A DNA stretch of 64,000 bases from Candidatus Acetothermia bacterium (lineage in GTDB: Bacteria > Bipolaricaulota > Bipolaricaulia > RBG-16-55-9). A program made the position numbers and the translations under genes. The notes beneath the pieces are model-generated. The model was not told where the DNA came from. It saw only the letters and a list, made by a program, of their open reading frames with translations, and ran no database searches. Where the stretch lies: positions 106,631 through 170,630 of the forward strand of contig JACQCZ010000014.1 of the NCBI GenBank assembly GCA_016201405.1, read 5' to 3'. Shown one piece after another: positions 18,065 to 33,239 of this stretch. Position 1 is the stretch's first letter, and each line of letters starts with the position of its first letter.

Positions 18065-18316
18065 ATGGCCCAGTTGATCATTGAATACTGCCATGAGTGC
18101 ATGTTTTTGGGACGAGCCATCGAGGTCGCTCAAAAGGCACTTCATCATTACCCTGATGCTTTGGAGTCGGTGACTCTTATCCCTGGCTCAAATGGAGTCT
18201 TTACGGTGATGCTTGATCATCTGCCCATTTACACAATCAATGAAGAAGGATTATTGCCATCTTCAGACCAAGTCCAAAATCTGCTCGCAAAGAAGCTAGG
18301 AGCGAAGCTCGCATGA
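18065..18316 (+). CDS. SelW/Rdx family thioredoxin-like protein (Cys-containing homologue)
   Basis: 83 aa; IEYCHEC (CxxC) at the N-terminus and LIPGSNGVF pattern of the Rdx family. Confidence 0.7.
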   Translation: MAQLIIEYCHECMFLGRAIEVAQKALHHYPDALESVTLIPGSNGVFTVMLDHLPIYTINEEGLLPSSDQVQNLLAKKLGAKLA

Positions 18317-19652: not shown

Positions 19653-19966
19653 CCAGGGGTTGGCGTAATGGCGCTTCGTTGACCTTGTATTGGTTGACTT
19701 TTTACAGACCCCCGTCCTATTTTCCACGTGGGAAATTCTTGGGTGTGGGATTAGCGACCGAGTTGCACAGTACCCCTAATTGACATGTTGCACCCCAGAA
19801 GTATCTCTCGTCCCTAAAGCCGGGCTGATTCCTAGGGATTGGCCCGGCCCCCTAGGGCTCTCTCAAACTCACATCACAAATGTTGATCAAGCTCCAATTG
19901 GCCTGTCAGCACAGGCGTAGAGAATAAGATAATCAATGGGACAATGCATTCATCGAGCATGCCGCC

Positions 19967-19993
19967 TTGACAGCATGCAGATGCAGGCATAAT
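19967..19993 (+). promoter_or_regulatory. putative sigma70-type promoter for the seven-gene operon
   Basis: TTGACA at 19967-19972, 15-nt spacer, CATAAT at 19988-19993; GGAGG RBS at 20021-20025 before ATG 20031. Confidence 0.45.
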
Positions 19994-20030
19994 CTTTCAA
20001 CCAACATCGCGGGCGCGAGCGGAGGCATTG

Positions 20031-21905
20031 ATGAGGGGGGCATTATTTCGCTGGATTCTGAGAGTTCTATTCTCTCTTCTTCTGGTCCTCTCCTTCGCTT
20101 ACCAAACTGGGCTTGCAGATGTCAGTCTAGATGTCGAAGTGGGCTTTGGAGGCCAATTCATGTCCGGCCAGTACACTCTCGTCCAGGTCGTCTTGCAATA
20201 TCAGGGCCCGCCTCTCACGGGAGAGCTGGCACTTCACCAAGAGTACAAATCTCCGCTCGAGAGCGAGAAGTCCTTTTCTGAGCGGCGCACGGTGCGCCTG
20301 GGCTCAAATGTCAACCAGCTCTATCAATTCTATTTCCCCGTCTCCCGCTCTCCCTGGCCCAATGAGGATCAGCCCGCTCTCTCCATCACGCTCTCATCCA
20401 ATGGGAGCGTGGTATTTTCGAAGCGCGTTCCCCTCGCCGGCGACGTTGAGCCACAGCCGCTCGTGCTCGGAGTGAGTGAGACCAACTTTCCCCGCATGCT
20501 CACGACAGGAGAGCGGATAGAGAGCGTGGGACTCAATCAGCTGCCGGAGGACTGGCGAGGATATGACGGAGTGAGAAGAATCTATCTGGGCCGCGCGAGA
20601 ACCGACCAGCTCACCAAGCGCCAACAAGACGCGATCCAGCAGTGGATCACACGGGGCGGAGAATTCGTGGTGCTCGGCGGTGAGAATTTCTACTTGCAGG
20701 ATTCTTCGTGGCTGCGCCAGATCATTCCGTTTGATGTCTCAGGAATCGAAGCGGCACAGGCCTCGTCCGATCTGCCCACGTATGTTGCAGGCAAGCCTCT
20801 CGGGGAAGTCCTCATTCAGCGGGCTGCGATCCCACTTCTGGTAGAGCAGCGGGTCGTCAATGGCATCATCTTCTTTTCCGTGCTCGACTTATCACAGCAG
20901 ACGGAATTGTCTCAAGCCATCTGGAACGACTTGCGGCAGACCTCTTCTCTGCTCGACAATCAGCCTCCTGATCTGGGCTCAAAGATTTTGGGAAACACCC
21001 AGCTCGCTTATCCATCAAAGCCGCTCCTTGGCGCTCTGTTGATTCTTTATCTAATAGGCTTTGCCTATATCAGCCTTTGGATGCTGCGGCAGCCCCTCAA
21101 CACCTTGCTCTCCTCTCCCGAGGGCGGTGAGATGCGCAGAAAGAGGCAGGGCTGGAAGGTGCTCGCCTTTGTTGTCGGCTGGATGCTCATCTTTGCAGTC
21201 CCGAGCCTTGCCTATCTGGGCCAGCCCAGATTTCACAGTTATTTTCAGTCTCTTGAGGTCGGGTTGATCAGAGCCCAGGAGGGATCGTCCTGGGGCTGGA
21301 GCCAGAGCTGGTACAGTGTCATCTCCAAGAAGGAGCGCAGCCTCTCGCTGGCAGCCAGCGACAACTCTCTCATCCTGCCCCTGGGGCAGACGCAGCTGGA
21401 ACTGCTGCAAGAACGCCCCGATGCGTGGGATTTGGACTTTTCACCCAACCCTATGAAAAGCTGGTCCACAGAGAACCTCTATACCGAAGAGATGGTGCCG
21501 CTTGACATCGGCGTACGCGCGGACAAAGAGGGTGGAGATGTCAGAGGCTCTCGGATTCAGGTCTATAATGGCAGCCAATGGAACCTGCGGGATGCCGTGC
21601 TCTTTCGCAACGGAGTCTATTATCCCATCGGAGAGGTCCCAGCCGGAAAGTCGCTCACCGCTGAGCTTAGCGGTCTGGGACTCAATGAGTGGTCACCATG
21701 GAGTGGCTTCAAAGACCTCTGGAGCATCGAGGAGCGGGTGAAGAATGTCATCATGAATCAGCTCGGGATTACGGATGAATTGAAGAGGGATCGCAGCCAA
21801 TGGGTCTTGCTCGGCTGGGCCGAAGTTCGCGCGCTGACTCAGGCTTACCGCGAAAATCGTCAGGGACTTTCACTCATTCTCATTCGCTCCAAGGAGCAAG
21901 AGTAG
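20031..21905 (+). CDS. hypothetical exported/membrane protein, first gene of the MoxR-VWA operon
   Basis: About 624 aa; N-terminal signal peptide, two central TM helices, no recognised catalytic motif. The ORF formally starts at TTG 20028. Confidence 0.5.
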   Translation: MRGALFRWILRVLFSLLLVLSFAYQTGLADVSLDVEVGFGGQFMSGQYTLVQVVLQYQGPPLTGELALHQEYKSPLESEKSFSERRTVRLGSNVNQLYQFYFPVSRSPWPNEDQPALSITLSSNGSVVFSKRVPLAGDVEPQPLVLGVSETNFPRMLTTGERIESVGLNQLPEDWRGYDGVRRIYLGRARTDQLTKRQQDAIQQWITRGGEFVVLGGENFYLQDSSWLRQIIPFDVSGIEAAQASSDLPTYVAGKPLGEVLIQRAAIPLLVEQRVVNGIIFFSVLDLSQQTELSQAIWNDLRQTSSLLDNQPPDLGSKILGNTQLAYPSKPLLGALLILYLIGFAYISLWMLRQPLNTLLSSPEGGEMRRKRQGWKVLAFVVGWMLIFAVPSLAYLGQPRFHSYFQSLEVGLIRAQEGSSWGWSQSWYSVISKKERSLSLAASDNSLILPLGQTQLELLQERPDAWDLDFSPNPMKSWSTENLYTEEMVPLDIGVRADKEGGDVRGSRIQVYNGSQWNLRDAVLFRNGVYYPIGEVPAGKSLTAELSGLGLNEWSPWSGFKDLWSIEERVKNVIMNQLGITDELKRDRSQWVLLGWAEVRALTQAYRENRQGLSLILIRSKEQE

Positions 21906-21907
21906 CG

Positions 21908-22666
21908 GTGTCCGCGCAAGAGCGCGCATCAGTAGCCAATCCCAAGAGCACTGCCCCGAAAATCCCTTGGCTGGGAACCGATTGGGACTACTGGTTCGAC
22001 CGCGAGACGTGGTCATCCCTGATGGCGTTTCTTCTGCTGTCGGGAGGCATCTTGCTCGTTGCCTTGCCGAACACAACCGAAGTCGGCAGGCTCACTCCCA
22101 AATCCATGGAAGCGACTGATCTCTTCTCGGCCCTCTATTCAATCTTATTTGGGATTCTGGCGATCACGCTTGGACAGGCCGAGTTGTCTTGGGGACATCG
22201 GCTCAGCAGCCAGGAGCATTTTGTTCATCTATTTAGCCGTCTGGTGGTGCCGCTGGTGCTCAGTCTGCCCTACTGGATTCTTTATATCTTCGCCAATATC
22301 ATGAGCCCACTTTTAATTATTGTACTCCTTGTGCATTTTATTTTATATGGTTATGTGCTCGGGCTTTGCGGCTGGCGGCTATCGCTGATGGGGCAGTCCG
22401 AGATCTTCCAATTCAACATCAAATATCTGAGCTACTTTGGGCTGGTCGCGATTACCTTCTTTGCTGCGCCGCTCCAGTTCATCAATCCCATCTTGGCGAT
22501 CACGGAGATTTTGGGGGAGAATGGCATGGCTCCCGCACTCAATCTGTTGGGCTTCTATACCGCATGGCTGGCGCTGGGTGCGGTCATAGCGTACTTGATC
22601 TTGCACAAACTGAATACGGAGAATCGAGAAATGGAGGAGTATGAAAACGAACTATCTCGTCGTTGA
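21908..22666 (+). CDS. hypothetical polytopic membrane protein
   Basis: About 253 aa with about 6 predicted TM helices; GTG start immediately after the upstream stop (the ORF track begins at 21800, overlapping the previous gene). Confidence 0.45.
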   Translation: MSAQERASVANPKSTAPKIPWLGTDWDYWFDRETWSSLMAFLLLSGGILLVALPNTTEVGRLTPKSMEATDLFSALYSILFGILAITLGQAELSWGHRLSSQEHFVHLFSRLVVPLVLSLPYWILYIFANIMSPLLIIVLLVHFILYGYVLGLCGWRLSLMGQSEIFQFNIKYLSYFGLVAITFFAAPLQFINPILAITEILGENGMAPALNLLGFYTAWLALGAVIAYLILHKLNTENREMEEYENELSRR

Positions 22667-24380
22667 GCAAGAGGTGATTGAGGCGCGGCGGCGGTTGAAT
22701 CGCCTTCAGGGTGTGCGGCTGGGGTTGACTCTCTCAGCCTCGCTGACGCTCGTCTATCTCATTCTCTTCTTCTTTGGCTGGGTACAGTTGATTCAGCCCT
22801 GGCCGATTCTCATTCTCTTTAACGCCATCTGCGGCGGACTCGGCATGATGTGGGGAGATCGGCGTCCAACGCGCCTCCAGCACGACCTGCTCCGTGTCGA
22901 CCGCGCGCTAGGGCTTGGCGAGAAGCTCACGACGATCTTTGAGCTTCGCCGGGGTGAGCGCTCATCCGACATCTTGGAAGCCCTCTATCGCCGGATTGAC
23001 CAGAGCCACGTCGATCCCAAAGAAGTCTTCAAGCTCCCCCGCACGGAGCAGAATGGCTGGTATGCGCTCGGCGGGATCACTGCCGGCATCTTGCTGATGA
23101 TCGGGCTTTGGGGGAATGGCCTCAGTCTCCTCCATATTGAGCAATGGCTCCAAGGTCTGCCGATAAATGAGCTTTCCAGTCAACAGACTCTCCTGGGTAA
23201 AGATGCACTGGATGGCTCACAAAGCGTTTTAGGGAAGGGCCAGAATCAATCGAATGCCAAAGATAAGAAGAGTGATGACGCAGCCTGTGAAAAGCAAGAC
23301 TCTTCTTCAACAGCCCTGAGCAGCGATGCAAATTGCGTCAATGGCAGAGATCAGAATTCACCTACAGATTCGCAAAATCAGACGGCGAAGAATCAAAATG
23401 GCCAGAATATGCCGCCAAACTTTCCACAGAGTCTGTCCGATTTGCTGCAACAGCTCCAGCAGGGGAATATCTCACAAGATGAAGTGCAAAAAGATCTGAG
23501 CAGCCTCGCCAATCAGCTTCCGCCAGGCCTGTTGCAAGATATGCTAAAAGACGCAGCAAAGAGCATGGATCCTGCTGACCTTGCGAAGCGGCTGGCCGAT
23601 GCCCTCAAGGAAGCACAACGTCAGGATGAGAACCAGAAGAAGCGGGCTCAATCCAATGACAAAAATGACAACCAGCCCTCTCCTCAAGGGGGCCCAGGCT
23701 CCAAAGGCCAGGGGATCCCGGGTATGGCCTCTGGAGACCAATTGGCAAATCAGAATCAAAACAACTCGAATAAATCAGGCACAGAAGCCCCGAACAGCGG
23801 GAGCTCTTCCTCACAATCCGGTGAGAACCCAGATCAGCCCAAAGGTGGGGATCAGTCAAACCAGTCTGGGCAGGCCGGGGGCAAGCAGGGCAGCAGTGAC
23901 TCCCTCTCCCAGAATGGCAAGAGCAAAAATGACTCACCCGACAAGAAAGATGAAAACGGGAAGAGCTCTGATGGCTCCGGCACGAACGACGGATCCAATA
24001 ACAGCGGAAGTAGTAGCGGCTCCCCTGAAAGCTCATCGGATGACGAGGGCTCTGGTGGCAAAGACTCATCGGGTGGCAATGGAGCCGGTGACACCGCTGG
24101 AAATGGCAAGGATGGGAAGAAGGATCAGTCTTTGACCATGGATAAGAGCCTGCTCATCCACGGCGCCAGTCTTCCGCAGGATGCTGAGCAGCTCAAGCGG
24201 TTAATTACGCTTGGATTGCCCGTGGATTTGCAAGGCACTCAAGCCGATGGGACACCCACGCTCAAGCTCAATATCGAGCGTGTCGAGTCGCTGCTCCAGC
24301 TCCGCGAGCTTCCCCCCAATCTGAGAGCGCTGGTCCGGGCCTATTTCTTGGCTATCGCCGGAGAAAAATCGTCCAAATAA
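22641..24380 (+). CDS. hypothetical membrane protein with a roughly 300-aa Q/N/S/D/G/K-rich disordered region
   Basis: 579 aa; N-terminal TM helices, third TM near residue 150, long low-complexity polar segment, conserved-looking C-terminal 80 aa. Start overlaps upstream stop by 26 nt. Confidence 0.5.
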   Translation: MKTNYLVVEQEVIEARRRLNRLQGVRLGLTLSASLTLVYLILFFFGWVQLIQPWPILILFNAICGGLGMMWGDRRPTRLQHDLLRVDRALGLGEKLTTIFELRRGERSSDILEALYRRIDQSHVDPKEVFKLPRTEQNGWYALGGITAGILLMIGLWGNGLSLLHIEQWLQGLPINELSSQQTLLGKDALDGSQSVLGKGQNQSNAKDKKSDDAACEKQDSSSTALSSDANCVNGRDQNSPTDSQNQTAKNQNGQNMPPNFPQSLSDLLQQLQQGNISQDEVQKDLSSLANQLPPGLLQDMLKDAAKSMDPADLAKRLADALKEAQRQDENQKKRAQSNDKNDNQPSPQGGPGSKGQGIPGMASGDQLANQNQNNSNKSGTEAPNSGSSSSQSGENPDQPKGGDQSNQSGQAGGKQGSSDSLSQNGKSKNDSPDKKDENGKSSDGSGTNDGSNNSGSSSGSPESSSDDEGSGGKDSSGGNGAGDTAGNGKDGKKDQSLTMDKSLLIHGASLPQDAEQLKRLITLGLPVDLQGTQADGTPTLKLNIERVESLLQLRELPPNLRALVRAYFLAIAGEKSSK

Positions 24381-24402
24381 ATCTCATTCAACGAGGGATA
24401 TC

Positions 24403-25389
24403 ATGACCATCGAGATGCAACTGGCAAAAACAGAAGAGGTCTTCCAGAAGCTGACGCGTGACATTCAGAAAGTTATTGTCGGCCACCAGGAGACTATCCG
24501 GGGGACGCTGATCTGCCTGCTCTGTGGCGGGCATGCTCTTCTCGAAGGCGTACCCGGGCTCGGCAAGACCCTCACCGTAAAGACGCTGGGTAAATTATTG
24601 GGGCTCTCTTTCTCCAGAATTCAGTTTACGCCCGATCTCATGCCCGCAGACATTTTGGGAACCAATATCATTGTGGAAGAGGGAGGCCGGAGGGCCTTTG
24701 AGTTTTCAAAGGGCCCCATCTTTGCCCATATTGTGCTGGCGGACGAGATAAACCGCGCCACCCCCAAGACGCAATCTGCGCTCCTCGAAGCGATGCAGGA
24801 GCGCGGGGTCACCATCTCCGGCAAAACTTATGTACTGGACGAGCCATTTATCGTTCTGGCCACGCAGAACCCCATCGAGATGGAAGGCACATATCCTCTG
24901 CCTGAGGCACAAGTAGACCGCTTCTTCTTCAAGATTGTCCTCGATCAGCCGACGCAAGAAGAGCTGGACGAGATTCTCAAGCGCCACATGACATCACCGG
25001 AAGTGAAGCACATCGCCGGAAGCGCCATCTCGCGCGAGACTCTAGTCGACGCAAAGAAGCTGATGGCTCAGATCCCTATTGCGGAGCCGTTGCGCCATTA
25101 CATCGTGCGGCTGGTCAATGCCACGCATCCCAAGCGGGATGAGGCAGCTCCGCTGGTCAAAGAATACGTCGAATATGGAGCGAGCCCGCGCGCTGGCATC
25201 GCCCTTCTCTGGGGCGCAAAGGCCAATGCATTCTTAGATGGCCAATTGAACGTTCGCATCGAAGATATTCAGCGCGTCTTTGTGCCTGCATTCCGGCACC
25301 GAATCATCCGCAACTTCCGGGGCGAGGCGGAGGGCATCGCCGTCGATGAGATCTTAAAACAAGTGATCGAGAAGACTCCCGAGGTATAG
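24403..25389 (+). CDS. MoxR family AAA+ ATPase
   Basis: 328 aa; Walker A GVPGLGKT, Walker B VLADEINR, and the MoxR sensor region. Confidence 0.9.
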   Translation: MTIEMQLAKTEEVFQKLTRDIQKVIVGHQETIRGTLICLLCGGHALLEGVPGLGKTLTVKTLGKLLGLSFSRIQFTPDLMPADILGTNIIVEEGGRRAFEFSKGPIFAHIVLADEINRATPKTQSALLEAMQERGVTISGKTYVLDEPFIVLATQNPIEMEGTYPLPEAQVDRFFFKIVLDQPTQEELDEILKRHMTSPEVKHIAGSAISRETLVDAKKLMAQIPIAEPLRHYIVRLVNATHPKRDEAAPLVKEYVEYGASPRAGIALLWGAKANAFLDGQLNVRIEDIQRVFVPAFRHRIIRNFRGEAEGIAVDEILKQVIEKTPEV

Positions 25390-25395
25390 CGGCAC

Positions 25396-26268
25396 ATGCC
25401 CCTTCTGCTCGATTCAGCCTATCTCAAAAAGCTCGAAAACCTGGGTCTGGTCATTCGGGGGCGCTTTCATGGCTATATGACCGGAAAGCGGCTCACTTCC
25501 CGCTCCGGGATGAGCCTGGAATTTGCTGAATACAAAGAATATTCGCCGGGGGATGATTTTCGCTATGTAGACTGGAATCTCTATGGACGCCTTGGGAAGC
25601 TCTTTGTCAAACGCTTTAACCGCGAAGAGGACGTTCCGATCTATCTCTTTTTGGACATTAGCCATTCGATGGCCATCGGAGAAAAGCTCAATTACGCCGT
25701 TCTGCTGGCGGGCACGCTGGCCTATTTAGGACTGAAAGAATTCAATCGCGTCGGGATCTTTCCGTTTGCCAGCGATCTGGCTCTCGGCGTGCCTCCCAAA
25801 GGGAGCTACAAACAGCTCTTCCAGATCTTCCATTTCTTAGAGAAAGTCGTGCCAGCGGGAGAGACCTCCATCAATGAGTCCCTGACGCGCTTTACGCGCA
25901 TCCGCCGTGAGAGCGGGCTGGCCGTCATTATCAGCGACATGCTCAGCGAGGATGGCTTTGAAGAGGGACTGGCACAGCTCCTCTATCATGGCTATGAGGT
26001 GATCGTCCTTCATCTGTTGGCTCCCGATGATTTGAATCCAGCGTGGAATGGCGAGATTCGCCTCAAAAATATTGAAGACCAGAAGGAGATTACAGTCCAT
26101 GTGGATCGCGCTGCGCTGAACGAGTACCAGACGGCCTTGGATAATTATCGTTCAAGACTGGAAGCATTCTGTCGTGAGCGCGGCATCCGCTATGCCCTGG
26201 TCTCTACGGACAGCCCTCTTGAGAAGACAGTCTTCGAGACCTTGCGGGAAGGGGCGCTGGTTCAATGA
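25396..26268 (+). CDS. DUF58 domain protein (MoxR partner)
   Basis: 290 aa; DUF58 signature YVDWNLYGRLGKLFVKRF and LFLDISHSM; directly downstream of MoxR. Confidence 0.85.
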   Translation: MPLLLDSAYLKKLENLGLVIRGRFHGYMTGKRLTSRSGMSLEFAEYKEYSPGDDFRYVDWNLYGRLGKLFVKRFNREEDVPIYLFLDISHSMAIGEKLNYAVLLAGTLAYLGLKEFNRVGIFPFASDLALGVPPKGSYKQLFQIFHFLEKVVPAGETSINESLTRFTRIRRESGLAVIISDMLSEDGFEEGLAQLLYHGYEVIVLHLLAPDDLNPAWNGEIRLKNIEDQKEITVHVDRAALNEYQTALDNYRSRLEAFCRERGIRYALVSTDSPLEKTVFETLREGALVQ

Positions 26269-28154
26269 CCTTTCTATCGGGCATTGCGCTCTGGCTTCTA
26301 GGCCTTGGTGCGATCATCACATTTATTTATTTCTTAAAGCGCCAGGCGCGGGTGCAGCCCGTCTCGACGCTCTTTCTCTGGCAAAGGATTGAGCAGAGGC
26401 CCCAGAGCGCGCTCCGTTTTCAGTGGACCCAGCTCCTCGGGCTCATCTTGCAGTTACTGGCTCTCACAGCCATTGTGGTGGGGATTGCCCAGCCGGTGAT
26501 CTACTCTGCCAGCGGCGGTGTGGGACGAATGGCCATTCTGCTCGATGGAAGCGCCAGCATGCGAGCGCTCATGCCTTCTGAAAAGATCACACGCTTTGAG
26601 CGGGCCGTACAGCGGGCTCAAGGGTTGCTCGATGAGAATCCGGCTGCCGAGGTGACCTTGGTCGAGGCACAGACGCACAGCGCAATCCTTGTACCGCCTA
26701 CCCATGATCATTCCTTCATTCGCAAGGCTCTGAGCGACGCCAGGCCGACGTATCAGGGGAATGCTGACTCGGGCGAGCTGCTCAGCCTTCTTCAAAGTCA
26801 GAGCAGCACAGGCTATGACCAAGTTGTCCTGATCAGCGATCAAGCTGCCAAGCCGCAGCAGCAGCAATTGGGGATTGATGTTGAGTCCGTCTTGGGAGAT
26901 GAATCTTCTGAAAATATTGCCCTTACGGACTTTTCTGTGCGTGAGCAGCCCAATGGCAAGGGGTATGACTTCTATCTCCAAGCCTGGAACTCATCGAGTG
27001 ATGCAGTAAACGTTCCGCTGGATATAGAAGCCGATGGGAAATCCGTCCAGTCGGATGTGATCACCATCCCCGCGCATGGCTCTCTCTCACGAACTTTCTC
27101 ATCGTCGCTTCGCTATGCGGATGAGTTTCGAGCCAAGATCGATACCACGGCTCTTCCCGACGACTGGAGCGATGATGACGTACGCTATGCGACATCTCCA
27201 CAGCCACCCCCCTGGAAGATTTTATGGGTAGGCAAGATCAATTTTTATCTAGAGAGCTTTTTGCAGAATTCAGGAGAGGTTGACCTGACCGAGAAGGCGA
27301 CCCTGGATGAAGCGGGAGATCTCAACCGCTATGACGTGGTCCTGCTCAATCAAGTCGATCTTTCGGATGCTCAGGCTGGCGCGGGTCATTATCTGGCATT
27401 TGGCGGCTCTTTTGGAAGCTATATCCTCTCCAAAAGCATTCATGATCTGACGAGTGGCGCGGTGGATGTCCAGAAAGATGACCCACTCTTGCAAGGGATG
27501 GACCCGACCGCTTGGCGACTGCTCCACATTCCGGACGCGGCCGTCGATCCCAAGGGAGAGGTCTTATTATCTTCCGAGAGTCTTCCGTTTCTTTATATTT
27601 ATGAGAAGCCGGGTCTGCGGCTTTCGTATATCGGAGCCGATTTGGAGGCTTCCAATCTTGTATTGTCGATTGATTTTCCAATACTGATCTATCGTCTGCT
27701 CTCTTGGCTTTCTCCCCGCTCTGGGGAGAGCACAACGCTGACGGCTGGAGACGAGCTTCCGCTATCATCATTAGAAAATATAAAGAGCATTGTCGATCCG
27801 CAAGGCAAGACCTGTCAATACAATTCTTCCGCAAGCCAGTGCGGCAGCTTGGGCGAGATCGGTTTCTATCAGGCCACGCGAGCCGATGGAGAGGCCGTGA
27901 CTTTCGCCGCCAATGCGGATCCAACAGAGTCTATTTGGGAGGATGCTTCGGATGCGGCTGCAACTGCAGTGACTCCGACGAGCTCACAGCAGGCAGGGTC
28001 ACTGGGCGACACGCCGCAAGCGTTAAAAGCGGCGATCCCTGTATGGCCCTATTTGCTGGCGATTGGATTGATCTTATTACTGGCTGAGCTCTTCACATTT
28101 CACCGTCCAACGGCAATTCCATGGCTGCCCTCCCTGGGGAGGAAGAGGGCATGA
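26265..28154 (+). CDS. BatA-like membrane protein with VWA domain
   Basis: 629 aa; N-terminal BatA-type TM region, MIDAS-like DGSAS motif, C-terminal TM helix. Start overlaps upstream stop. Confidence 0.7.
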   Translation: MTFLSGIALWLLGLGAIITFIYFLKRQARVQPVSTLFLWQRIEQRPQSALRFQWTQLLGLILQLLALTAIVVGIAQPVIYSASGGVGRMAILLDGSASMRALMPSEKITRFERAVQRAQGLLDENPAAEVTLVEAQTHSAILVPPTHDHSFIRKALSDARPTYQGNADSGELLSLLQSQSSTGYDQVVLISDQAAKPQQQQLGIDVESVLGDESSENIALTDFSVREQPNGKGYDFYLQAWNSSSDAVNVPLDIEADGKSVQSDVITIPAHGSLSRTFSSSLRYADEFRAKIDTTALPDDWSDDDVRYATSPQPPPWKILWVGKINFYLESFLQNSGEVDLTEKATLDEAGDLNRYDVVLLNQVDLSDAQAGAGHYLAFGGSFGSYILSKSIHDLTSGAVDVQKDDPLLQGMDPTAWRLLHIPDAAVDPKGEVLLSSESLPFLYIYEKPGLRLSYIGADLEASNLVLSIDFPILIYRLLSWLSPRSGESTTLTAGDELPLSSLENIKSIVDPQGKTCQYNSSASQCGSLGEIGFYQATRADGEAVTFAANADPTESIWEDASDAAATAVTPTSSQQAGSLGDTPQALKAAIPVWPYLLAIGLILLLAELFTFHRPTAIPWLPSLGRKRA

Positions 28155-30721
28155 TTCGGTTCAGCCAGCTCTGGCCGCTTCTCTTACTGCTTATCCCTAT
28201 CGGACTGCTCCTCTGGCAGTGGGAGGCGCTGAAGCGCTTTACCCTCGGCGACCGCATTTCGTTTGGGGCGCGGCTCGGAGTTGTGGCGCTTGGCATCCTC
28301 GCACTCTCAGGACCGCAATTGTTGAGCTGGACGGAATCGCACTACGTCTATTTTCTGGCAGATCTTTCCAAAAGCGTGAGCCCTCAAGACCGGGGTCAGC
28401 TGCTCTCGGAGCTTCGCGCACTCGCCAAGCCGCAAGAGTACACTCAATACGGCCTGATCGTCTTTGGGGTCAAGCCGTATGTCGAAGCTCCATTCAGCCC
28501 AATGTTAAATTTGAACGAGGTCTTGACGAATGTCGATAGTGAAGGAACAGATTTGCAGGCCGCACTGGAGCTGGCCATGTCAACCTTCCCCCGTGATGGC
28601 AAGAAGACGATTGTGCTTCTTTCCGATGGCCAGCCAAGCCAGGGAGAGACGACAGAGGCGCTGGCCCGCGCCAAACGGGAAGGGGTAGAGATCTTCACTT
28701 TGCCGATGGACCCGCCAGCCTCTGAGTTTTCAATCCAGACGATCCAGGCTCCACAAGAGGTCGCAGTCCAGCTCCCCTTCTCATTCCAGAGCGTCGTCTA
28801 TGCCTCACGATCCAGCACCGGAAAGCTGCTCACATACCGCAATGAGACACTGATTGACACAAAAGATGTCGCTCTGCGTCCTGGGCTCAATTACTTTTCG
28901 TATAGCGACAAAGTGAATGACCCCGGCAGCTATGAGTACCGAGCCGAGCTTGTTGTCGCTGGCGATGCGCTCCCTCAGAACAATCATTATCGCGCATTGG
29001 TCGATGCGATCGGCGATCCGCGCATTCTTCTGGTAGAGAACAATTCTTCAGAGCAAGAATCGGTGATGGGAAAGCTGTTAAAAAACTCTGGCTATGCCTT
29101 CTCCAAAGTGAGCCTGAATGAGCTGGCGCCGACAGCCAGCTCCCTGCTCTCATACCGAGCTGTGATTATGAACGAAGTGCCGCTCAAAGATCTCACGGCA
29201 CGGCAGACCGAATTTCTAGAAAATTATGTGCGCGATCTCGGCGGAGGGCTCTTCCTCGTCCAGGGCAGGCAGTCCGTCGAAGAGTTTTATGACCGCCAGT
29301 TTGAGCAGATGCTGCCCATCACCTATGAAGGTCCGCAAGAGATCCAGCGCCCCGCGCTCGCTTTGGTGATGCTGCTCGACCGCTCCGGCAGCATGGGCGA
29401 GATCGCCGGCGGTGATACCAAGGGCAGCTATATGAAGATCGATCTCTTAAAACAGGCAGCACGAGAGGCCGTCTCCAAGCTCGATGACAACAGCCTTGTC
29501 GGCATCATCGGCTTTGACTCGACCTACGACTGGCTGGTAGACATTGGCCCCGTGAAAGGTCGGAAAGATGAGATTTTAGCTGCAGTTGATAAGCTCTATG
29601 CCAATGGCGGGACAGACATCTATCAGCCTCTCAAAGATGCCGTCGCCCAGTTGCAGAAGCTGACCGCGCGCGTCAAGCACATTCTGGTCTTCTCCGATGG
29701 AAAAGTATCCCAGCAGGGGCGCGATTTCGATCAAATCTTCCAGGAGATTGCCGGCAGCACGATCAGCGCCTCATCCATTGCCATCGGAGCACAAGCCGAT
29801 TTTGACTTCATGTGGAAGCTGGCGGATGCGGGGAGCGGCGCCAAATATCCAGTGGCCGATGCGCGGGATCTGCCACGAATCACGCTGGAAGAGATGGTGC
29901 GGCTGGAACGCGCCCGCTGGGTCAAAGGGCCATTGGGTGTCGAGGCCGGACCCTTTGCAAATCAGCTGACTGGAATTGACCCCAGCACCATCCCCAATGT
30001 CGATGGCTATGTTCTGACGTTTGAGAAGCCAACGGCGCAGACGCAGCTTCAGGTCCGTGCTGACAAAGATCATGCAGACCCTCTGGTGAGTCAGTGGCAC
30101 TATGGTCTGGGCAAGGTCTTTGTGCTCAACACCAGCTTTGAAGGCGAAGGCCTGGAGCGCTGGAAGTCCTGGAGCGGACTGGGCGAGCTGAGCTCTGAGA
30201 TTCTGAGCCAGGTCTACAGCGAGAGCACCATCAAGCCCAAAGAGCTAGCCGTCTGGACAGATTCTTCTAACTCAACGCTGAGCGTCCATGTTGAAGCGGA
30301 CCGCGACGGCAAATGGCTGGATCAATTGGTAATGAATGGGCAACTCAACACACCGGATGGCAAGTCAATTCCTCTCGACTTGGAACAGACGGGACCAGGG
30401 ACCTATCAGGCCACCGTAAAAGATCTGAGCGAAGGCGTCTATCTGCTCAATTTGGGTGAAGATTCACTCGGTCAAGTCCAAGAGGCTGTCCAGATTCCCT
30501 ATGCAGCGGAGTACAAAAAGATTGGGCTGAATGAGCCACTTTTGCAACAGATCGCAGAAGTGACTGGAGGAGAATATCTTGAGAATCCAGATCGCTTGCA
30601 AGGCCTGTTGCAGGGCCGGACACTGATCTACCGGGATATCTGGCAGGAGATTTTATTGGCAGCCCTCTTCTTCTTTCTGGCCGATCTGGCTCTGAGAAAA
30701 GTGCCTTTTCTGCACGCTTAA
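28151..30721 (+). CDS. BatB-like membrane protein with two VWA domains
   Basis: About 856 aa from ATG 28151 (ATGA overlap); N-terminal TM, two MIDAS-like motifs (DLSKS and DRSGS), C-terminal TM anchor. Confidence 0.7.
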   Translation: MIRFSQLWPLLLLLIPIGLLLWQWEALKRFTLGDRISFGARLGVVALGILALSGPQLLSWTESHYVYFLADLSKSVSPQDRGQLLSELRALAKPQEYTQYGLIVFGVKPYVEAPFSPMLNLNEVLTNVDSEGTDLQAALELAMSTFPRDGKKTIVLLSDGQPSQGETTEALARAKREGVEIFTLPMDPPASEFSIQTIQAPQEVAVQLPFSFQSVVYASRSSTGKLLTYRNETLIDTKDVALRPGLNYFSYSDKVNDPGSYEYRAELVVAGDALPQNNHYRALVDAIGDPRILLVENNSSEQESVMGKLLKNSGYAFSKVSLNELAPTASSLLSYRAVIMNEVPLKDLTARQTEFLENYVRDLGGGLFLVQGRQSVEEFYDRQFEQMLPITYEGPQEIQRPALALVMLLDRSGSMGEIAGGDTKGSYMKIDLLKQAAREAVSKLDDNSLVGIIGFDSTYDWLVDIGPVKGRKDEILAAVDKLYANGGTDIYQPLKDAVAQLQKLTARVKHILVFSDGKVSQQGRDFDQIFQEIAGSTISASSIAIGAQADFDFMWKLADAGSGAKYPVADARDLPRITLEEMVRLERARWVKGPLGVEAGPFANQLTGIDPSTIPNVDGYVLTFEKPTAQTQLQVRADKDHADPLVSQWHYGLGKVFVLNTSFEGEGLERWKSWSGLGELSSEILSQVYSESTIKPKELAVWTDSSNSTLSVHVEADRDGKWLDQLVMNGQLNTPDGKSIPLDLEQTGPGTYQATVKDLSEGVYLLNLGEDSLGQVQEAVQIPYAAEYKKIGLNEPLLQQIAEVTGGEYLENPDRLQGLLQGRTLIYRDIWQEILLAALFFFLADLALRKVPFLHA

Positions 30722-31299
30722 TCAGGCTCAATGATCTTCGCGCTGGGCCGCTCTCTCCCCAATTCGCGCCGCAGCTCGGGGCCAATCTTCTGACCAAAGA
30801 CAACGACCATCTTTTCACTATGAAGGGGCTTCTCGAGCTGGTGCAGCTGATGAAGCAACTGACTTGTCCTTTCGGCAGTCGAAGGGATTTCCGCTAATAT
30901 AATGTTGTATTCATCTCCAACGACGAAGGCAACGGCATTATCCAGGGGGACTTCGGCTAGCTCGATATCGGGCAACTCGCCTGCAACTCTGTGATGGAAT
31001 GCATTGCCCCAGTCTATAAACGGCGTGCGCCAAGGCTCTCCGGAAAGATCGCTCATCAGGAGCTCCCTGATTGTCTTATCGGGCTGTAAAGCATAGCGCA
31101 GTGCGCTGGCCGGGCTCTTCAATCTGGAAAAGAGCATATAGAGCGCAAGAGCTCCGACGACAATCGCTATTCCCCCTACCAAAGAGCCCTCACTCAACGG
31201 CTCCGAAGTAAGCAGCAGATAGATGCCAAAGAGCGGCGTAATCAAGTACGTCACCATGCGGATGAGAAAGCGCTTGCGCGATCCAAATTCAGGTCGCAT
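30718..31299 (-). CDS. hypothetical membrane protein
   Basis: Two N-terminal TM helices and a cytoplasmic domain; start uncertain (the ORF extends to 31338 and overlaps the rhomboid gene). Confidence 0.4.
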   Translation of the reverse strand: MRPEFGSRKRFLIRMVTYLITPLFGIYLLLTSEPLSEGSLVGGIAIVVGALALYMLFSRLKSPASALRYALQPDKTIRELLMSDLSGEPWRTPFIDWGNAFHHRVAGELPDIELAEVPLDNAVAFVVGDEYNIILAEIPSTAERTSQLLHQLHQLEKPLHSEKMVVVFGQKIGPELRRELGRERPSAKIIEPD

Positions 31300-31303
31300 A
31301 GAG

Positions 31304-32047
31304 TCAAACAGGGCTGGGTGGGCTTGGCCTTTTTGCAAAGAAGCGCACGAAGAGCAAGCCTGTTATGAAGCCGCCAATGTGAGCCATATAGGCAATACCA
31401 CCCCCCTGAATTGCACCACCTCCAAGCAGAGAGCTAATCACTTGCAGCAAGAACCAGAAGCCCAAGACAATCATCGCTGGCATCTCGATCAACTGCACGA
31501 TGACAAAGAGGAAGAGAATTGTGAGAACGCGGGCAAAGGGATACAGGAGCAGGTATGCACCCAAGACCCCGGCAATCGCTCCGCTTGCCCCCACCATCGG
31601 GCTCACACTATGGGTGTTCGTCAGAATCTGCGCAATCGCTGCCACTAAGCCAGCCATGAAGTAGAAGAGTGCAAAGCGCACTTTGCCCATGGCATCTTCT
31701 ACATTGTCGCCAAAGATCCATAGAAACCACATATTACTCGCAATGTGCAGAATGTCTCCGTGCAAAAACATGGATGAAAAAAGCTTCATCCAGACTGGAA
31801 AATCTGTGACAGAAAAGAGGGGACAGTTGGACAGAATCTCACAGGGCGTCAGTCCGTATTTGTAGATAAAGTAGTCGTAGTGTGAGATCACGCCGACTTC
31901 GCCGCCAATTTGCACGCGAACTTTGGAGGGATTCTGCCCCATAACCAGCGCCTGATAGAGAAAGACAATCACGTTGATGGCAATAATGAGTACCGTGACC
32001 CAGGGAAAGGACTGGCTACGTCTATAATCCCGCAATGGGAAGAGCAA
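31304..32047 (-). CDS. rhomboid family intramembrane serine protease
   Basis: 247 aa; catalytic Ser in GASGAIAGVLGAY and His in AHIGGF; 6-7 TM helices. Confidence 0.85.
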   Translation of the reverse strand: MLFPLRDYRRSQSFPWVTVLIIAINVIVFLYQALVMGQNPSKVRVQIGGEVGVISHYDYFIYKYGLTPCEILSNCPLFSVTDFPVWMKLFSSMFLHGDILHIASNMWFLWIFGDNVEDAMGKVRFALFYFMAGLVAAIAQILTNTHSVSPMVGASGAIAGVLGAYLLLYPFARVLTILFLFVIVQLIEMPAMIVLGFWFLLQVISSLLGGGAIQGGGIAYMAHIGGFITGLLFVRFFAKRPSPPSPV

Positions 32048-32141
32048 AAGTCCACCTCCTGGTCATTCGTAACTTAGCTCAATGTACAGATCGAATTCAT
32101 TGGCTTCAAGTTGTACAATGCGGCACATAAGGAGACCCATG

Positions 32142-32537
32142 AAGCAAGGAGCCGTCATCAAATTTATTGCGCGCTGGGTAGTGGCCACAATCTCCATCTA
32201 CGCCATCGCTTGGCTCTTTCCGGGCATCATCCAGATTGATGACTTCTCAACAGCGATTTGGGCGGGATTGGCTCTTGGTTTTCTCAACGCAATTGTGAGA
32301 CCCATTCTCATTGTTTTTACGCTGCCAGCCACAATTCTAACCCTTGGGCTTTTTATTCTCGTGATCAATGCTCTAATGCTCTATCTTGTAGGCGCGCTGG
32401 TGGCTGGAGTTCATGTGACTAGCTTTGGCTCAGCATTTTTGGGAGCACTGCTCATCAGCATTCTCTCCTCTGTTATTCACTTCGTATTGTTCCCTGAGGA
32501 GCGCCGCCTGCACGTACAGATCAAGCGAAACTTGTAA
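32142..32537 (+). CDS. DUF360 / phage-holin-family 4-TM membrane protein
   Basis: Four TM helices with conserved NAIVRPILIVFTLP pattern. Start chosen at MKQGAV; the ORF starts at 32082. Confidence 0.55.
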   Translation, partial: KQGAVIKFIARWVVATISIYAIAWLFPGIIQIDDFSTAIWAGLALGFLNAIVRPILIVFTLPATILTLGLFILVINALMLYLVGALVAGVHVTSFGSAFLGALLISILSSVIHFVLFPEERRLHVQIKRNL

Positions 32538-32558: not shown

Positions 32559-33239
32559 CTAGGACGCCAAGCGACTAGCCAAAAGCACAGTATAGATCAG
32601 ATAAATCGCGCTTCCCCACATAATGAGAGCTGAGACTTTATTAAGAGCTCTTCTGATTTGTGGAAACGATCCCACCCACCGCCCTGCGATAGCCAGAATG
32701 AAGAACCAGAGCCACGAGACAAAGATGCAGGCCAGCACAAAGCCAATCTTTTCACTCGGCTGATATTGAATAGAGCTCGTTCCAATCACGCCAATGGTGT
32801 CAAGAATCGCATGAGGATTGAGGAGCGACACAGACATCGAAAATAATATCAGCCGAGTGATGGGCCATGGGTTTTGAGTCAAGCCACTCTGCGTGTCGTT
32901 TAAGACATTTTGGACGTCGCATTGGTCATCTGTTGAGGCGACCGATGGGGCGGGCGTGTCACTCTTCCAAGTCATCCAGCCGATGTATCCCAGGAATAAG
33001 ACCCCAACACCCACAAGCAGAAGTTTGACCCACGAAAATGTCAAGACGACAGCCGAGATTCCCAGCACCGCAATCAAGATCAAAAATGTATCGCAGAGTG
33101 AGGCGGTGATGATGACCGGAATGACGCGGACAAATTTGGGCTGAATCGCGCCCTGGGTAAGCACAAATAAATTTTGGGCTCCCAGTGGCAAAATGAGCCC
33201 AAGCGCGAGAAGAAAGCCATGGACTGCGGCTGTAATCAT
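32559..33239 (-). CDS. LysE/ArgO family amino acid exporter
   Basis: 226 aa; LysE-type N-terminus (LGLILPLGAQNLFVLTQG) and 6-TM topology. Confidence 0.75.
   Translation of the reverse strand: MITAAVHGFLLALGLILPLGAQNLFVLTQGAIQPKFVRVIPVIITASLCDTFLILIAVLGISAVVLTFSWVKLLLVGVGVLFLGYIGWMTWKSDTPAPSVASTDDQCDVQNVLNDTQSGLTQNPWPITRLILFSMSVSLLNPHAILDTIGVIGTSSIQYQPSEKIGFVLACIFVSWLWFFILAIAGRWVGSFPQIRRALNKVSALIMWGSAIYLIYTVLLASRLAS

Follow-up and report, generated by a model that had tools for sequence, protein, structure and literature searches.

Our analysis revealed that seven plus-strand ORFs (g1–g7, positions 20031–30721) of the window, the whole 64,000-nucleotide stretch that was analyzed, constitute a conserved cassette (Table 1). 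The cassette is a variant of the Bat-like and archaeal DUF4350–MoxR–vWA systems, in a seven-gene order not found described in the literature searched. Its products are two soluble cytoplasmic proteins (g4 and g5) and five membrane proteins, their topologies being predictions based on hydropathy and the positive-inside rule alone. We give about an even chance to the reading that all seven form one machine of the cytoplasmic membrane, in which the MoxR–DUF58 pair would remodel a g2–g3 platform carrying a scaffold of g1, g6, and g7.

Table 1. Coordinates and assignments of the cassette features in the window.
Feature	Position	Strand	Length	Description and basis
Promoter-like site (predicted)	19967..19993	+		TTGACA (19967-72), 15-nt spacer, CATAAT (19988-93); read from sequence
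Ribosome-binding site	20021..20025	+		GGAGG, 5 nt before the g1 ATG at 20031; conserved in L007
g1	20031..21905	+	624 aa	Divergent DUF7408/DUF4350 family member
g2	21908..22666	+	252 aa	GTG start at 21908; predicted six-TM, ABC-2 / type V ABC-exporter permease fold
g3	22641..24380	+	579 aa	Three TM helices; alignments, TM prediction, composition
g4	24403..25389	+	328 aa	MoxR-type AAA+ ATPase, cytoplasmic; Pfam AAA_3 E 2.9e-62, AAA_lid_2 E 1.9e-16
g5	25396..26268	+	290 aa	DUF58, cytoplasmic VWA-like adaptor; Pfam DUF58 E 2.3e-32, VWA_2 E 4e-6
g6	26265..28154	+	629 aa	Pfam BatA N-terminal domain E 1.2e-10, VWA_2 E 3e-10
g7	28151..30721	+	856 aa	From ATG 28151; two VWA domains; VWA E 1.3e-24, VWA_2 in two stretches

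Cassette order was compared over at least 12 other metagenomic contigs, giving 13 loci with the window. The complete g1–g7 order was identical in the window and in L001/2, L003, L007, L011, L012, L013, and L014, and was identical as far as each contig reaches in L004, L005/6, L009, L010, and L015. Every related contig of sufficient length showed this order, which was kept though g1 identity drops to about 18–22% among loci and which survived an IS110 insertion in L011. Such an arrangement lies far outside what chance would give. L008 carried a g1 relative without g2 and g3 after it. The single co-directional, near-abutting cassette proposed in an earlier note on this DNA was borne out by the junctions in the window (+2, −26, +22, +6, −4, and −4 nt, from g1 to g7) and by the recurrence of the same gene order in 12 other contigs. 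The gene coordinates given there also held, except that ATG 28151 is the most likely start of g7, not 28121; there an ATGA overlaps the g6 stop codon, as it does in relatives.

The promoter-like site that the earlier note placed upstream of g1 fared less clearly. Both hexamers were kept in L007, an 86%-identical relative, as TTGACA-N15-CATACT, and the adjoining spacer had diverged. A consensus promoter scan did not report the site because its spacer range was 16–18 nt, against the 15 nt found here. Promoter-like sites in the region were no commoner than in shuffled sequences.

The MoxR/DUF58/BatA/VWA half of the cassette was confirmed by Pfam matches for g4–g7. The Walker A (GVPGLGKT) and Walker B (LADEI) motifs of g4 were conserved in seven of seven loci, as was the DxSxS pattern of the g5 MIDAS motif (DISHS), and TM prediction gave no TM segment in either protein. 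MoxR–vWA pairs form the core of “ternary” anti-invader conflict systems (PMC7159879), and g4 passes the Pfam bpMoxR cut-off of 27 with 34 bits. However, its AAA_3 match is far stronger (209 bits), VMAP, iSTAND, FtsH, beta-propeller, and effector domains are absent from the seven proteins, and none of the seven has a PADLOC match. In addition, the window neighborhood of the cassette is housekeeping in content and uniform in composition, and the gene order does not vary but is strictly kept. A defense function is therefore scarcely credible.

The membrane protein g6 comprises a BatA-type double-TM N-terminus, a VWA domain (MIDAS DGSAS), an unassigned ectodomain of ~390 aa, and a C-terminal TM anchor. 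In g7, the double-TM N-terminus is followed by VWA1 (DLSKS), a GATase1-like domain split by VWA2 (DRSGS), an Ig-like region, and a C-terminal TM anchor. The MIDAS motif of g6 was found in 6/7 loci, and those of g7 were conserved in 6/6. The L014 orthologue of g7 matched GATase1_like in two stretches (E 9e-15) and the L011 orthologue matched it weakly, while for g6 there were only weak hints of similarity to g1 (hhalign E 0.039; in one member, DUF7408 E 0.034). We infer that the g6 VWA domain faces outward, both from the positive-inside rule and by comparison with the BatA-type protein BB0173, in which this orientation was mapped experimentally (PMC5700661).

Bat operons, spirochaete bb0170–bb0176, and the Leptospira bat loci likewise encode a MoxR AAA+ ATPase and a DUF58 protein, and, as in the cassette, their membrane proteins have a BatA double-TM N-terminus and, after it, a VWA domain with a MIDAS motif on the non-cytoplasmic side (PMC5700661). 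The adjacency of MoxR, DUF58, and a protein with the BatA N-terminal domain would fit a classic Bat (Bacteroides aerotolerance) operon protecting against oxygen or oxidative stress, as would the matches of a g7 orthologue to NCBIfam Leptospira BatA/BatB, although these are weak (E 8.6e-7 and 1.4e-4) and far below the cut-offs. In contrast to Bat loci, TPR (BatC), BatD, and BatE/SH3 domains were absent from all seven proteins in Pfam/NCBIfam profile searches, in line with the earlier note, which had recognized no TPR component. The VWA proteins (629 and 856 aa) are two to three times the BatA/BatB-type length, with extra GATase1-like, Ig-like, and second VWA domains and C-terminal anchors, and three additional conserved genes (g1–g3) precede the cassette moxR. 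Moreover, Bat-type mutant phenotypes are inconsistent, and the aerotolerance role was not reproduced in Leptospira, where deletion gave no phenotype (PMC3557215). We consider a classic Bat operon highly improbable. The “broadly conserved operon” RL3499–RL3502 of Rhizobium leguminosarum reportedly consists of four genes of the MoxR–DUF58–double-TM/VWA-membrane-protein type, which would make it similar to the cassette, and it is not known to have a GIFT-domain or ABC-2-fold gene.

Direct Pfam and NCBIfam searches with g1, g2, and g3 gave no match even at E ≤ 10, in agreement with the earlier note, which had found no family to name for them. The lack of a nameable family holds for g3, but not for g1 or g2. 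The g1 protein consists of a signal/anchor helix, an Ig-like beta-sandwich (aa 30–134), a GATase1-like/GIFT domain (aa 144–285), a TM hairpin (aa 332–395), and a second beta-rich outer domain (aa 396–624), with model pLDDT below 50 in the C-terminal half. It has a GATase1-like/GIFT fold resembling GldG/IFT52, and its family of 2395 representative clusters includes members that match Pfam DUF7408 and DUF4350. A DUF4350-type family in an already described gene order had been named beforehand as evidence against novelty. The profile matches do place g1 in that family, but no description of the seven-gene order or of the g2/g3 partners was found in the literature searched, so that only half of the objection applies.

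The association of DUF4350 with MoxR and vWA was already described for archaea in 2015, as a predicted secretion or membrane-remodelling complex (arCOG01314; Makarova, Galperin, Koonin 2015; PMC5898192), and DUF4350 was linked to GldG by HHpred (PMC5898192). Like the cassette, the archaeal system combines a membrane-anchored extracellular flavodoxin/GATase1-like (GldG-like) protein with MoxR, vWA, and further membrane proteins (PMC5898192); g1 and the archaeal DUF4350 protein share the same fold, and g1 relatives match the same Pfam family. However, where the archaeal protein has a single C-terminal TM, g1 carries a TM hairpin plus a second ectodomain. The partners also differ, being Ig-like S-layer-type proteins (COG4743/DUF1616) and a secreted Ig-vWA protein in archaea, and an ABC-2-fold protein, g3, DUF58, and BatA-type double-anchored VWA proteins in the cassette.

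An AF2 model, with an alignment of 7 sequences as input, predicts that g2 has an ABC-2 permease fold. No sequence-level link between g2 and ABC-2 families was found, and the gene in the g2 position of the distant clade was not significantly related in sequence (hhalign E 0.023). At its cytoplasmic end, TM2 carries a conserved motif, LGQAE..W..RL. Flavobacterium GldF/GldG and NosY of NosDFY resemble g1–g2 in that genes for a GIFT-domain auxiliary membrane protein and for a six-TM permease of the ABC-2 fold lie side by side. In contrast, g1–g2 show no sequence-level membership of either family, have no evident ABC ATPase partner, and are embedded in a MoxR/VWA operon. An alternative reading would be two independent modules in one operon: a GldG/GldF-like ABC-2 transporter (g1–g2) with g3 as an accessory, and an ordinary MoxR/DUF58/BatA/BatB set (g4–g7) with an unrelated target. 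The transporter would then draw its energy from an ABC ATPase whose gene lies at another site. Such an ATPase could serve g2; in Flavobacterium, gldA is unlinked to gldFG. However, no ABC-2-type ATPase gene was found in or beside the cassette at any locus examined, and those ABC ATPases that do occur nearby are parts of binding-protein importers or of fused exporters. The TM2–TM3 loop, the would-be coupling helix, is only ~5 residues long in the window clade, and the seven genes stay together in unchanged order over very deep divergence, even after the L011 insertion. We therefore regard two independent modules as unlikely.

Judged by sequence comparison, g3 is a separate family and the sole upstream gene left without a family assignment; Pfam, NCBIfam, and PDB searches gave no match. 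An N-in TM hairpin (aa 27–66) precedes a cytoplasmic domain (aa 67–145) with the motif VDRALGLGEKLTTIxEL and invariant L83, D87, E94, L96, T98, and E101. TM3 (aa 146–164) leads into an S/G/Q/D/N-rich, low-complexity outer linker (aa 166–505; net charge −14), and the C-terminal YF motif LPPNLRALVRAYF is kept in close and distant clades. The two clades were connected by hhalign (98.4%, E 6e-15), and the D87/E94/E101 motif is invariant across both. In L009, g2 and g3 are naturally fused: TM6 of g2 continues directly into “LDRTLGLGEKLTTLHEL”, and the invariant acidic motif lies right behind the final g2 helix, on the cytoplasmic side.

In characterized MoxR/VWA pairs, a VWA finger enters the MoxR pore and surface carboxylates of the target are needed (PMC9976466, PMC13036017); VWA peptide capture has also been described (PMC7159879). 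In the proposed single machine, the g4 hexamer would similarly grip g5, and g5 would use its metal site to bind target carboxylates. The favored target is the cytoplasmic domain of g3, conserved and rich in D/E, which would dock on the g2 bundle; the g5–g3 contact we purely infer. ATP hydrolysis would then remodel or gate the g2–g3 platform and in this way control the scaffold of g1, g6, and g7, either its assembly, its activation, or its activity in export. By prediction, the large GIFT/GATase1-like, Ig-like, and MIDAS-bearing VWA domains of these three proteins point outward. The low-complexity linker and YF motif of g3 may extend into this scaffold.

NorQ/NorD and RavA/ViaA likewise combine a MoxR hexamer with a MIDAS-bearing VWA adaptor, and known pairs bind acidic surface residues of a membrane-protein target; their client is a defined respiratory enzyme, whereas here the candidates lie within the cassette, among its five membrane proteins. 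MoxR/VWA pairs often act in metal-cofactor insertion or enzyme maturation (PMC9976466, PMC13036017, PMC7159879), and the MIDAS motifs are intact, as expected of a chaperone like NorQD, CoxDE, or MoxR-MxaL with a metalloenzyme client encoded elsewhere. However, no candidate client enzyme occurred in or beside the cassette among the 13 loci, whose flanks vary, and five of the seven products are membrane proteins whose large domains are of a scaffold type and not enzymatic. Such a chaperone role appears very unlikely.

As the earlier note suggested, the gene layout is indicative of a complex embedded in the membrane and associated with MoxR that is unlike described Bat operons. The only conserved client candidates for the cassette MoxR/VWA proteins are its own five membrane proteins. 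The cassette likely serves to build or maintain a cell-envelope or surface structure, or to secrete or flip one of its components; oxygen tolerance is the less probable role. Thus, the presence of MoxR and four metal-binding VWA domains together with g1, g2, and g3 in a conserved order speaks for an as yet unstudied machine of the cell envelope and against a classic “aerotolerance” operon.

Our analysis revealed that the seven + strand genes that the earlier note had grouped as co-directional are present as ORFs across 20031-30721 of the window. Apart from g3, discussed below, their parts are of known kinds: g1 (DUF4350/GIFT, where GIFT denotes the GATase1-like fold of GldG/IFT52-type proteins), g2 (ABC-2 fold), g4 (MoxR), g5 (DUF58), g6 (BatA-type VWA) and g7 (double VWA). 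Proteins identical to g1, g3 and g4 are recorded for a 488-kb contig of a 'Candidatus Acetothermia bacterium' MAG. From g1 to g7 the junctions measure +2, -26, +22, +6, -4 and -4 nt when ATG 28151 is taken as the g7 start, a choice that gives g7 the same ATGA stop/start overlap with g6 as in the relatives. Base composition is uniform with the remainder of the window, and a sequence scan found no terminator-like site of note within the cassette.

Features of the cassette, its neighbourhood and two related loci (L009, L011)
Feature	Sequence	Positions	Strand	Remarks
Rdx-family (SelW/SelT-like thioredoxin-fold) protein, 83 aa	window	18065-18316	+	just upstream of cytidylyltransferase-like and HD-domain genes
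g1	window	20031-21905	+	ORF
g2	window	21908-22666	+	ORF, GTG start at 21908
g3	window	22641-24380	+	ORF
g4	window	24403-25389	+	ORF
g5	window	25396-26268	+	ORF
g6	window	26265-28154	+	ORF
g7	window	28121/28151-30721	+	ORF
206-aa ORF	window	30718-31338	-	no Pfam/NCBIfam match; converges on g7, overlaps g7 stop by 4 nt
Rhomboid protease gene	window	31304-32047	-	next to 206-aa ORF
Phage_holin_4_2 family protein, 151 aa	window	32082-32537	+	E 1e-31
LysE-type exporter gene	window	32559-33239	-	adjoins Phage_holin_4_2 gene
Natural g2-g3 fusion, one ORF	L009	3485-5134	+	HMM match and translation
IS110-family transposase	L011	12387-13448	-	inserted between g1 and g2

The gene order g1-g7 recurred in close, distant and independent MAG loci, bearing out the arrangement described in the earlier note. 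A word-indexed search with g1 found only five relatives (33-86% identity), whose contigs carry identical genes in identical order. With g1, such searches gave 6 matches, with the g2 alignment 7 and with the N-terminal alignment of g3 only 1, too few to reach known families; it was an exhaustive profile search with the g1 alignment (A1) that opened the g1 family. This search found 2395 representative clusters at E<=1e-3, of which 765 pass E<=1e-10 and 38 pass E<=1e-30. The distant members inspected for context (profile E 1e-23 to 1e-97, about 18-27% identity to g1) showed g1-g2-g3-MoxR-DUF58-BatA-VWA with a single exception. The full order is present in L012 and L014 and holds as far as the contigs extend in L015, L010 and L009; in L011, a 4.9-Mb genome, it is intact save for an IS110 transposase between g1 and g2, which implies an internal promoter if g2-g7 are still expressed there. 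In the exception, L008, g1 lies 509 nt from one end of the contig, and the genes that come after g1 are unrelated. The same order was found in L013, an independent GTDB Bipolaricaulota MAG and the only one that a scan of the genome collection with A1 found. MAG labels in one distant g1 cluster, which are indicative only, include Aminicenantes, Aerophobetes and Clostridia. Since the flanking genes vary between loci, the seven genes constitute the conserved unit.

The promoter-like site that the earlier note placed ahead of g1 can be upheld only in part. The sequence TTGACA-N15-CATAAT is present, and its hexamers and spacing are kept in L007, an 86%-identical relative, but the region has no excess of promoter-like sites; the N15 spacer falls outside the range of 16-18 nt used in our consensus promoter scan. 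Just upstream of the hexamers, the sequence diverges between the window and L007. The g1 start codon (ATG 20031) is preceded by GGAGG at a spacing of 5 nt, and Rfam gave no match in the window, including the 5' intergenic region.

Several further observations concern the neighbourhood. A spacer block of about 215 nt (19653-19865, +), immediately behind the stop codon of the HD-domain gene, shares about 93% identity with L007 7364-7580; the spacer outside it diverges from L007, with an indel of about 250 nt. The + strand of the block folds at -76.7 kcal/mol (z -2.1), whereas the - strand does not. The block has no Rfam match and is absent from the other loci. It could represent either a structured RNA not described so far or a 3' element that belongs to the HD gene. 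The three-gene arrangement of Rdx, cytidylyltransferase-like and HD-domain genes is kept in L007. Downstream, the translation of the 206-aa ORF shows, on inspection by eye, a hydrophobic stretch at the N-terminus; the ORF and the rhomboid gene also lie downstream of g7 in L001, L003 and L007, not in L012. No further phage genes were noticed near the Phage_holin_4_2 gene. An ABC importer and/or TRAP transporter (DctPQM), the importer being of the binding-protein-dependent kind, is found directly upstream of g1 in L001, L002 and L004, and further upstream in L005 and L004. The importer in these relatives comprises SBP_bac_1/8, ABC_tran and two BPD_transp_1 genes, an arrangement that the window does not share, and the association of these transporters with the cassette is probably coincidental.

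The second half of the cassette was assigned with Pfam. The g4 product is a MoxR ATPase (AAA_3, E 2.9e-62, 208.8 bits against a cut-off of 27; AAA_lid_2, 60 bits against 22.7), with Walker A GVPGLGKT and Walker B LADEI intact in the window and six orthologues. Its VWA/DUF58 partner g5 (DUF58, E 2.3e-32) begins 6 nt past the end of g4. In g6 the BatA double-TM N-terminal domain (PF07584, E 1.2e-10; present in 6/6 orthologues) is accompanied by VWA_2, and g7 carries two VWA domains. The DxSxS MIDAS, the metal site of VWA domains, is kept across the orthologues of g5, g6 and both domains of g7, with g6 of L014 as the sole exception. The g7 orthologue of L014 matches GATase1_like (E 9e-15) in two stretches on either side of VWA2, and one g6 orthologue has a weak DUF7408 match; hhalign comparisons of g1 with g6 and g7 gave no significant sign of a shared paralogous ectodomain (E 0.039 and 0.38). 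No TM segment was predicted in g4 or g5, and two N-terminal segments plus one C-terminal segment were predicted in each of g6 and g7; by the positive-inside rule, the large domains of g6 and g7 are predicted to face outward. The experimentally mapped topology of BB0173, a BatA-type protein, agrees with this prediction (PMC5700661).

MoxR, DUF58 and a BatA-type (PF07584) VWA membrane protein are also common to the Bat operon, and the cassette might be read as a classic aerotolerance operon. However, BatC (TPR), BatD and BatE (TPR/SH3) are absent, which weakens this explanation. The missing BatC-like component had already been remarked upon in the earlier note, and indeed the seven proteins had no match to a TPR, BatD or SH3 family at E<=0.01; none was found in g1-g3 even at E<=10, or in the flanking genes. 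Moreover, the phenotype itself is doubtful, as oxygen tolerance was not reproducible even among accepted Bat members (PMC3557215). Another explanation, a cofactor-insertion chaperone serving an unlinked enzyme, is weakened by the lack of a conserved client gene nearby. A MoxR-vWA ternary conflict/defence system was rejected, since PADLOC returned nothing for the seven proteins; no VMAP, iSTAND, FtsH, beta-propeller or effector domains were detected in the cassette proteins.

The earlier note could name no family for the three upstream genes. This stands for direct scans of g1-g3, which gave no match in Pfam (E<=10) or NCBIfam (E<=0.01), but g1 and g2 can now be annotated by fold, and only g3 is left without a family. 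The five closest g1 relatives match DUF4350 at E>=0.027 and no better. When 71 diverse members of the g1 family were scanned singly, DUF7408 was matched by 33 (best E 7e-9) and DUF4350 by 25 (best E 4e-5); single members match ABC_transp_aux, GATase1_like and Glyco_hydro_42M, and the L015 orthologue, with 31.4 bits, passed the DUF7408 cut-off of 27. These profile-detected full-length relatives link g1 by transitive homology to the DUF4350/DUF7408 GldG-like membrane proteins. In the AF2 model of g1, confidence is confined to residues 30-300, where a beta-sandwich precedes an alpha/beta domain. The GATase1-like/flavodoxin-like GIFT fold is found in a domain of g1 that is predicted to be extracytoplasmic. 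Its resemblances include ThuA-like proteins, with Foldseek in agreement. HHpred has tied the same fold of archaeal DUF4350 proteins to GldG (PMC5898192); g1 departs from those proteins in carrying a TM hairpin at aa 332-395, as well as a second outer domain that is beta-rich and poorly modelled.

The AF2 model of g2 was usable (pLDDT 74.9, pTM 0.74) and showed a six-TM ABC-2 fold with an elbow helix at the N-terminus and a TM5 that is split, as in the TMD of type V ABC exporters. By sequence, g2 matched neither the Pfam/NCBIfam ABC-2 families nor solved permeases, and a PDB search with g2 profiles of both clades, close and distant, gave no meaningful match.

Values for g2 against individual proteins
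Protein	Value	Alignment
ABCG1	16.9	219 residues aligned
ABCG2	16.2	
Cdr1	15.7	
ABCG5	15.1	
ABCA4	13.9	
NosY	13.7	204/267 residues, 14% identity
PmtD	13.1	
Wzm	11.5	
KpsM	11.5	
CcmB	11.0	
TarG	10.1	

The top conserved motif of g2, LGQAE..W..RL, sits where TM2 ends on the cytoplasmic side. The TM2-TM3 loop, the site of the ABC-2 coupling helix, has about 5 residues in the close-clade model; its counterpart in the distant clade is longer by about 15 residues, with a sequence like W-L-x-x-T-P-L...G-K/R, which we take to resemble the conserved ABC-2 loop, a likeness without statistical support. The hhalign comparison of g2 between the clades was not significant (E 0.023), and we treat the proteins as equivalent because gene position, length and TM pattern agree. 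No cognate ABC ATPase (NBD), whose gene usually accompanies that of such a permease, was found in the cassette or conserved beside it at 13 loci, although one may be encoded in trans; ABC signatures in the window occur only at about 37.3-38.4 kb and 43.1-46.7 kb.

No known family in Pfam or NCBIfam accounts for g3, and a PDB profile search gave no meaningful match. In its conserved architecture, the basic N-terminus is followed by a TM hairpin, then by a domain of about 80 aa with L83, D87, E94, L96, T98 and E101 invariant in the alignment, and by a third TM. The 340-aa stretch that follows is S/G/Q/D/N-rich with a net charge of -14 (E/Q/R/L-rich in the distant clade), and the C-terminal motif [IL]P..[LFY][RK]..[IV][RK].YF is common to both clades, whose g3 proteins are homologous (hhalign probability 98.4%, E 6e-15). 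In the L009 fusion, g2 HMM positions 13-238 are followed directly by g3 from HMM position 86, and the last g2 helix runs into '...WLTRRQISSLDRTLGLGEKLTTLHEL...'. The g3 N-terminal TM hairpin is missing there, and the last g2 helix continues straight into the conserved LDRTLGLGEKLTTLHEL motif. The topology of the fused protein makes sense only with the acidic motif on the cytoplasmic side. This fusion argues for g2 and g3 working together.

The main alternative is that the cassette joins a GldFG-like ABC-2 transporter, its ATPase encoded in trans, with an ordinary Bat-like module that is independent of it. We consider this unlikely; it is weakened by the reduced coupling loop in g2, by the fusion of g2 with g3 and by the rigid synteny of all seven genes.

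In characterised MoxR/VWA pairs, the hexamer engages the VWA adaptor via its pore, the MIDAS face of the adaptor binds acidic groups of the client, and the client is remodelled at the expense of ATP (PMC9976466; PMC13036017; PMC7159879). The g3 domain on the g2 bundle is the only conserved acidic cytoplasmic candidate surface, and for this reason we propose it as the MoxR-DUF58 client. MoxR-DUF58 would remodel or gate a g2-g3 platform, which in turn would organise the GIFT/Ig/VWA scaffold that g1, g6 and g7 are predicted to form on the outer face. We are highly confident of the cassette composition, evenly divided on this overall picture, and more doubtful of the specific DUF58-g3 contact. A bolder version, which we regard as a long shot, is that MoxR-DUF58 substitutes for NBDs: the AAA+ hexamer, via a VWA adaptor gripping the acidic g3 domain, would cycle the NBD-less g2 bundle to export, flip or mechanically present an envelope component to the GIFT/VWA scaffold. 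If MoxR-DUF58 does power g2, this would be a new way to energise a transporter fold, and it would open the long-enigmatic Bat/MoxR-proper systems to mechanistic study for the first time.

The cassette is likely to serve in envelope assembly, maintenance or secretion. An envelope role fits the envelope-defect phenotype that is reportedly named in the title of a study of RL3499-RL3502. A role in the envelope or secretion also matches the prediction for the archaeal DUF4350-MoxR-vWA system (PMC5898192). That system (arCOG01314) shares with the cassette a DUF4350-type protein, MoxR and vWA in one operon; in contrast, its Ig-like S-layer-type proteins (COG4743/pfam07760) have no Pfam match in the cassette. 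The linkage has been published for archaea, and a complex was predicted in 2015 (PMC5898192). Our literature searches found no description of a fixed seven-gene bacterial cassette, of a MoxR operon that contains an ABC-2-fold protein but no ATPase gene for it, of the g3 family or of the g2-g3 fusion.

Operons of MoxR-proper, DUF58 and BatA-type VWA proteins occur widely among bacteria, and the Bat operon dates from 1999; to our knowledge, they have no accepted function as yet. Our study reveals that in many uncultured lineages the MoxR/DUF58/BatA module is tied rigidly to three more genes, encoding a GldG/IFT52-like surface protein, an ABC-2-fold protein without an adjoining ATPase gene, and g3, a new three-TM protein whose acidic cytoplasmic motif is conserved. 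Two of these three formerly "hypothetical" genes now have a fold-level annotation, and g1-g3 supply concrete, testable candidates for the MoxR/DUF58 client. The cassette thereby connects bacterial Bat-like systems with the archaeal DUF4350-MoxR-vWA complex, and it points away from oxygen defence and towards envelope assembly, transport or secretion.
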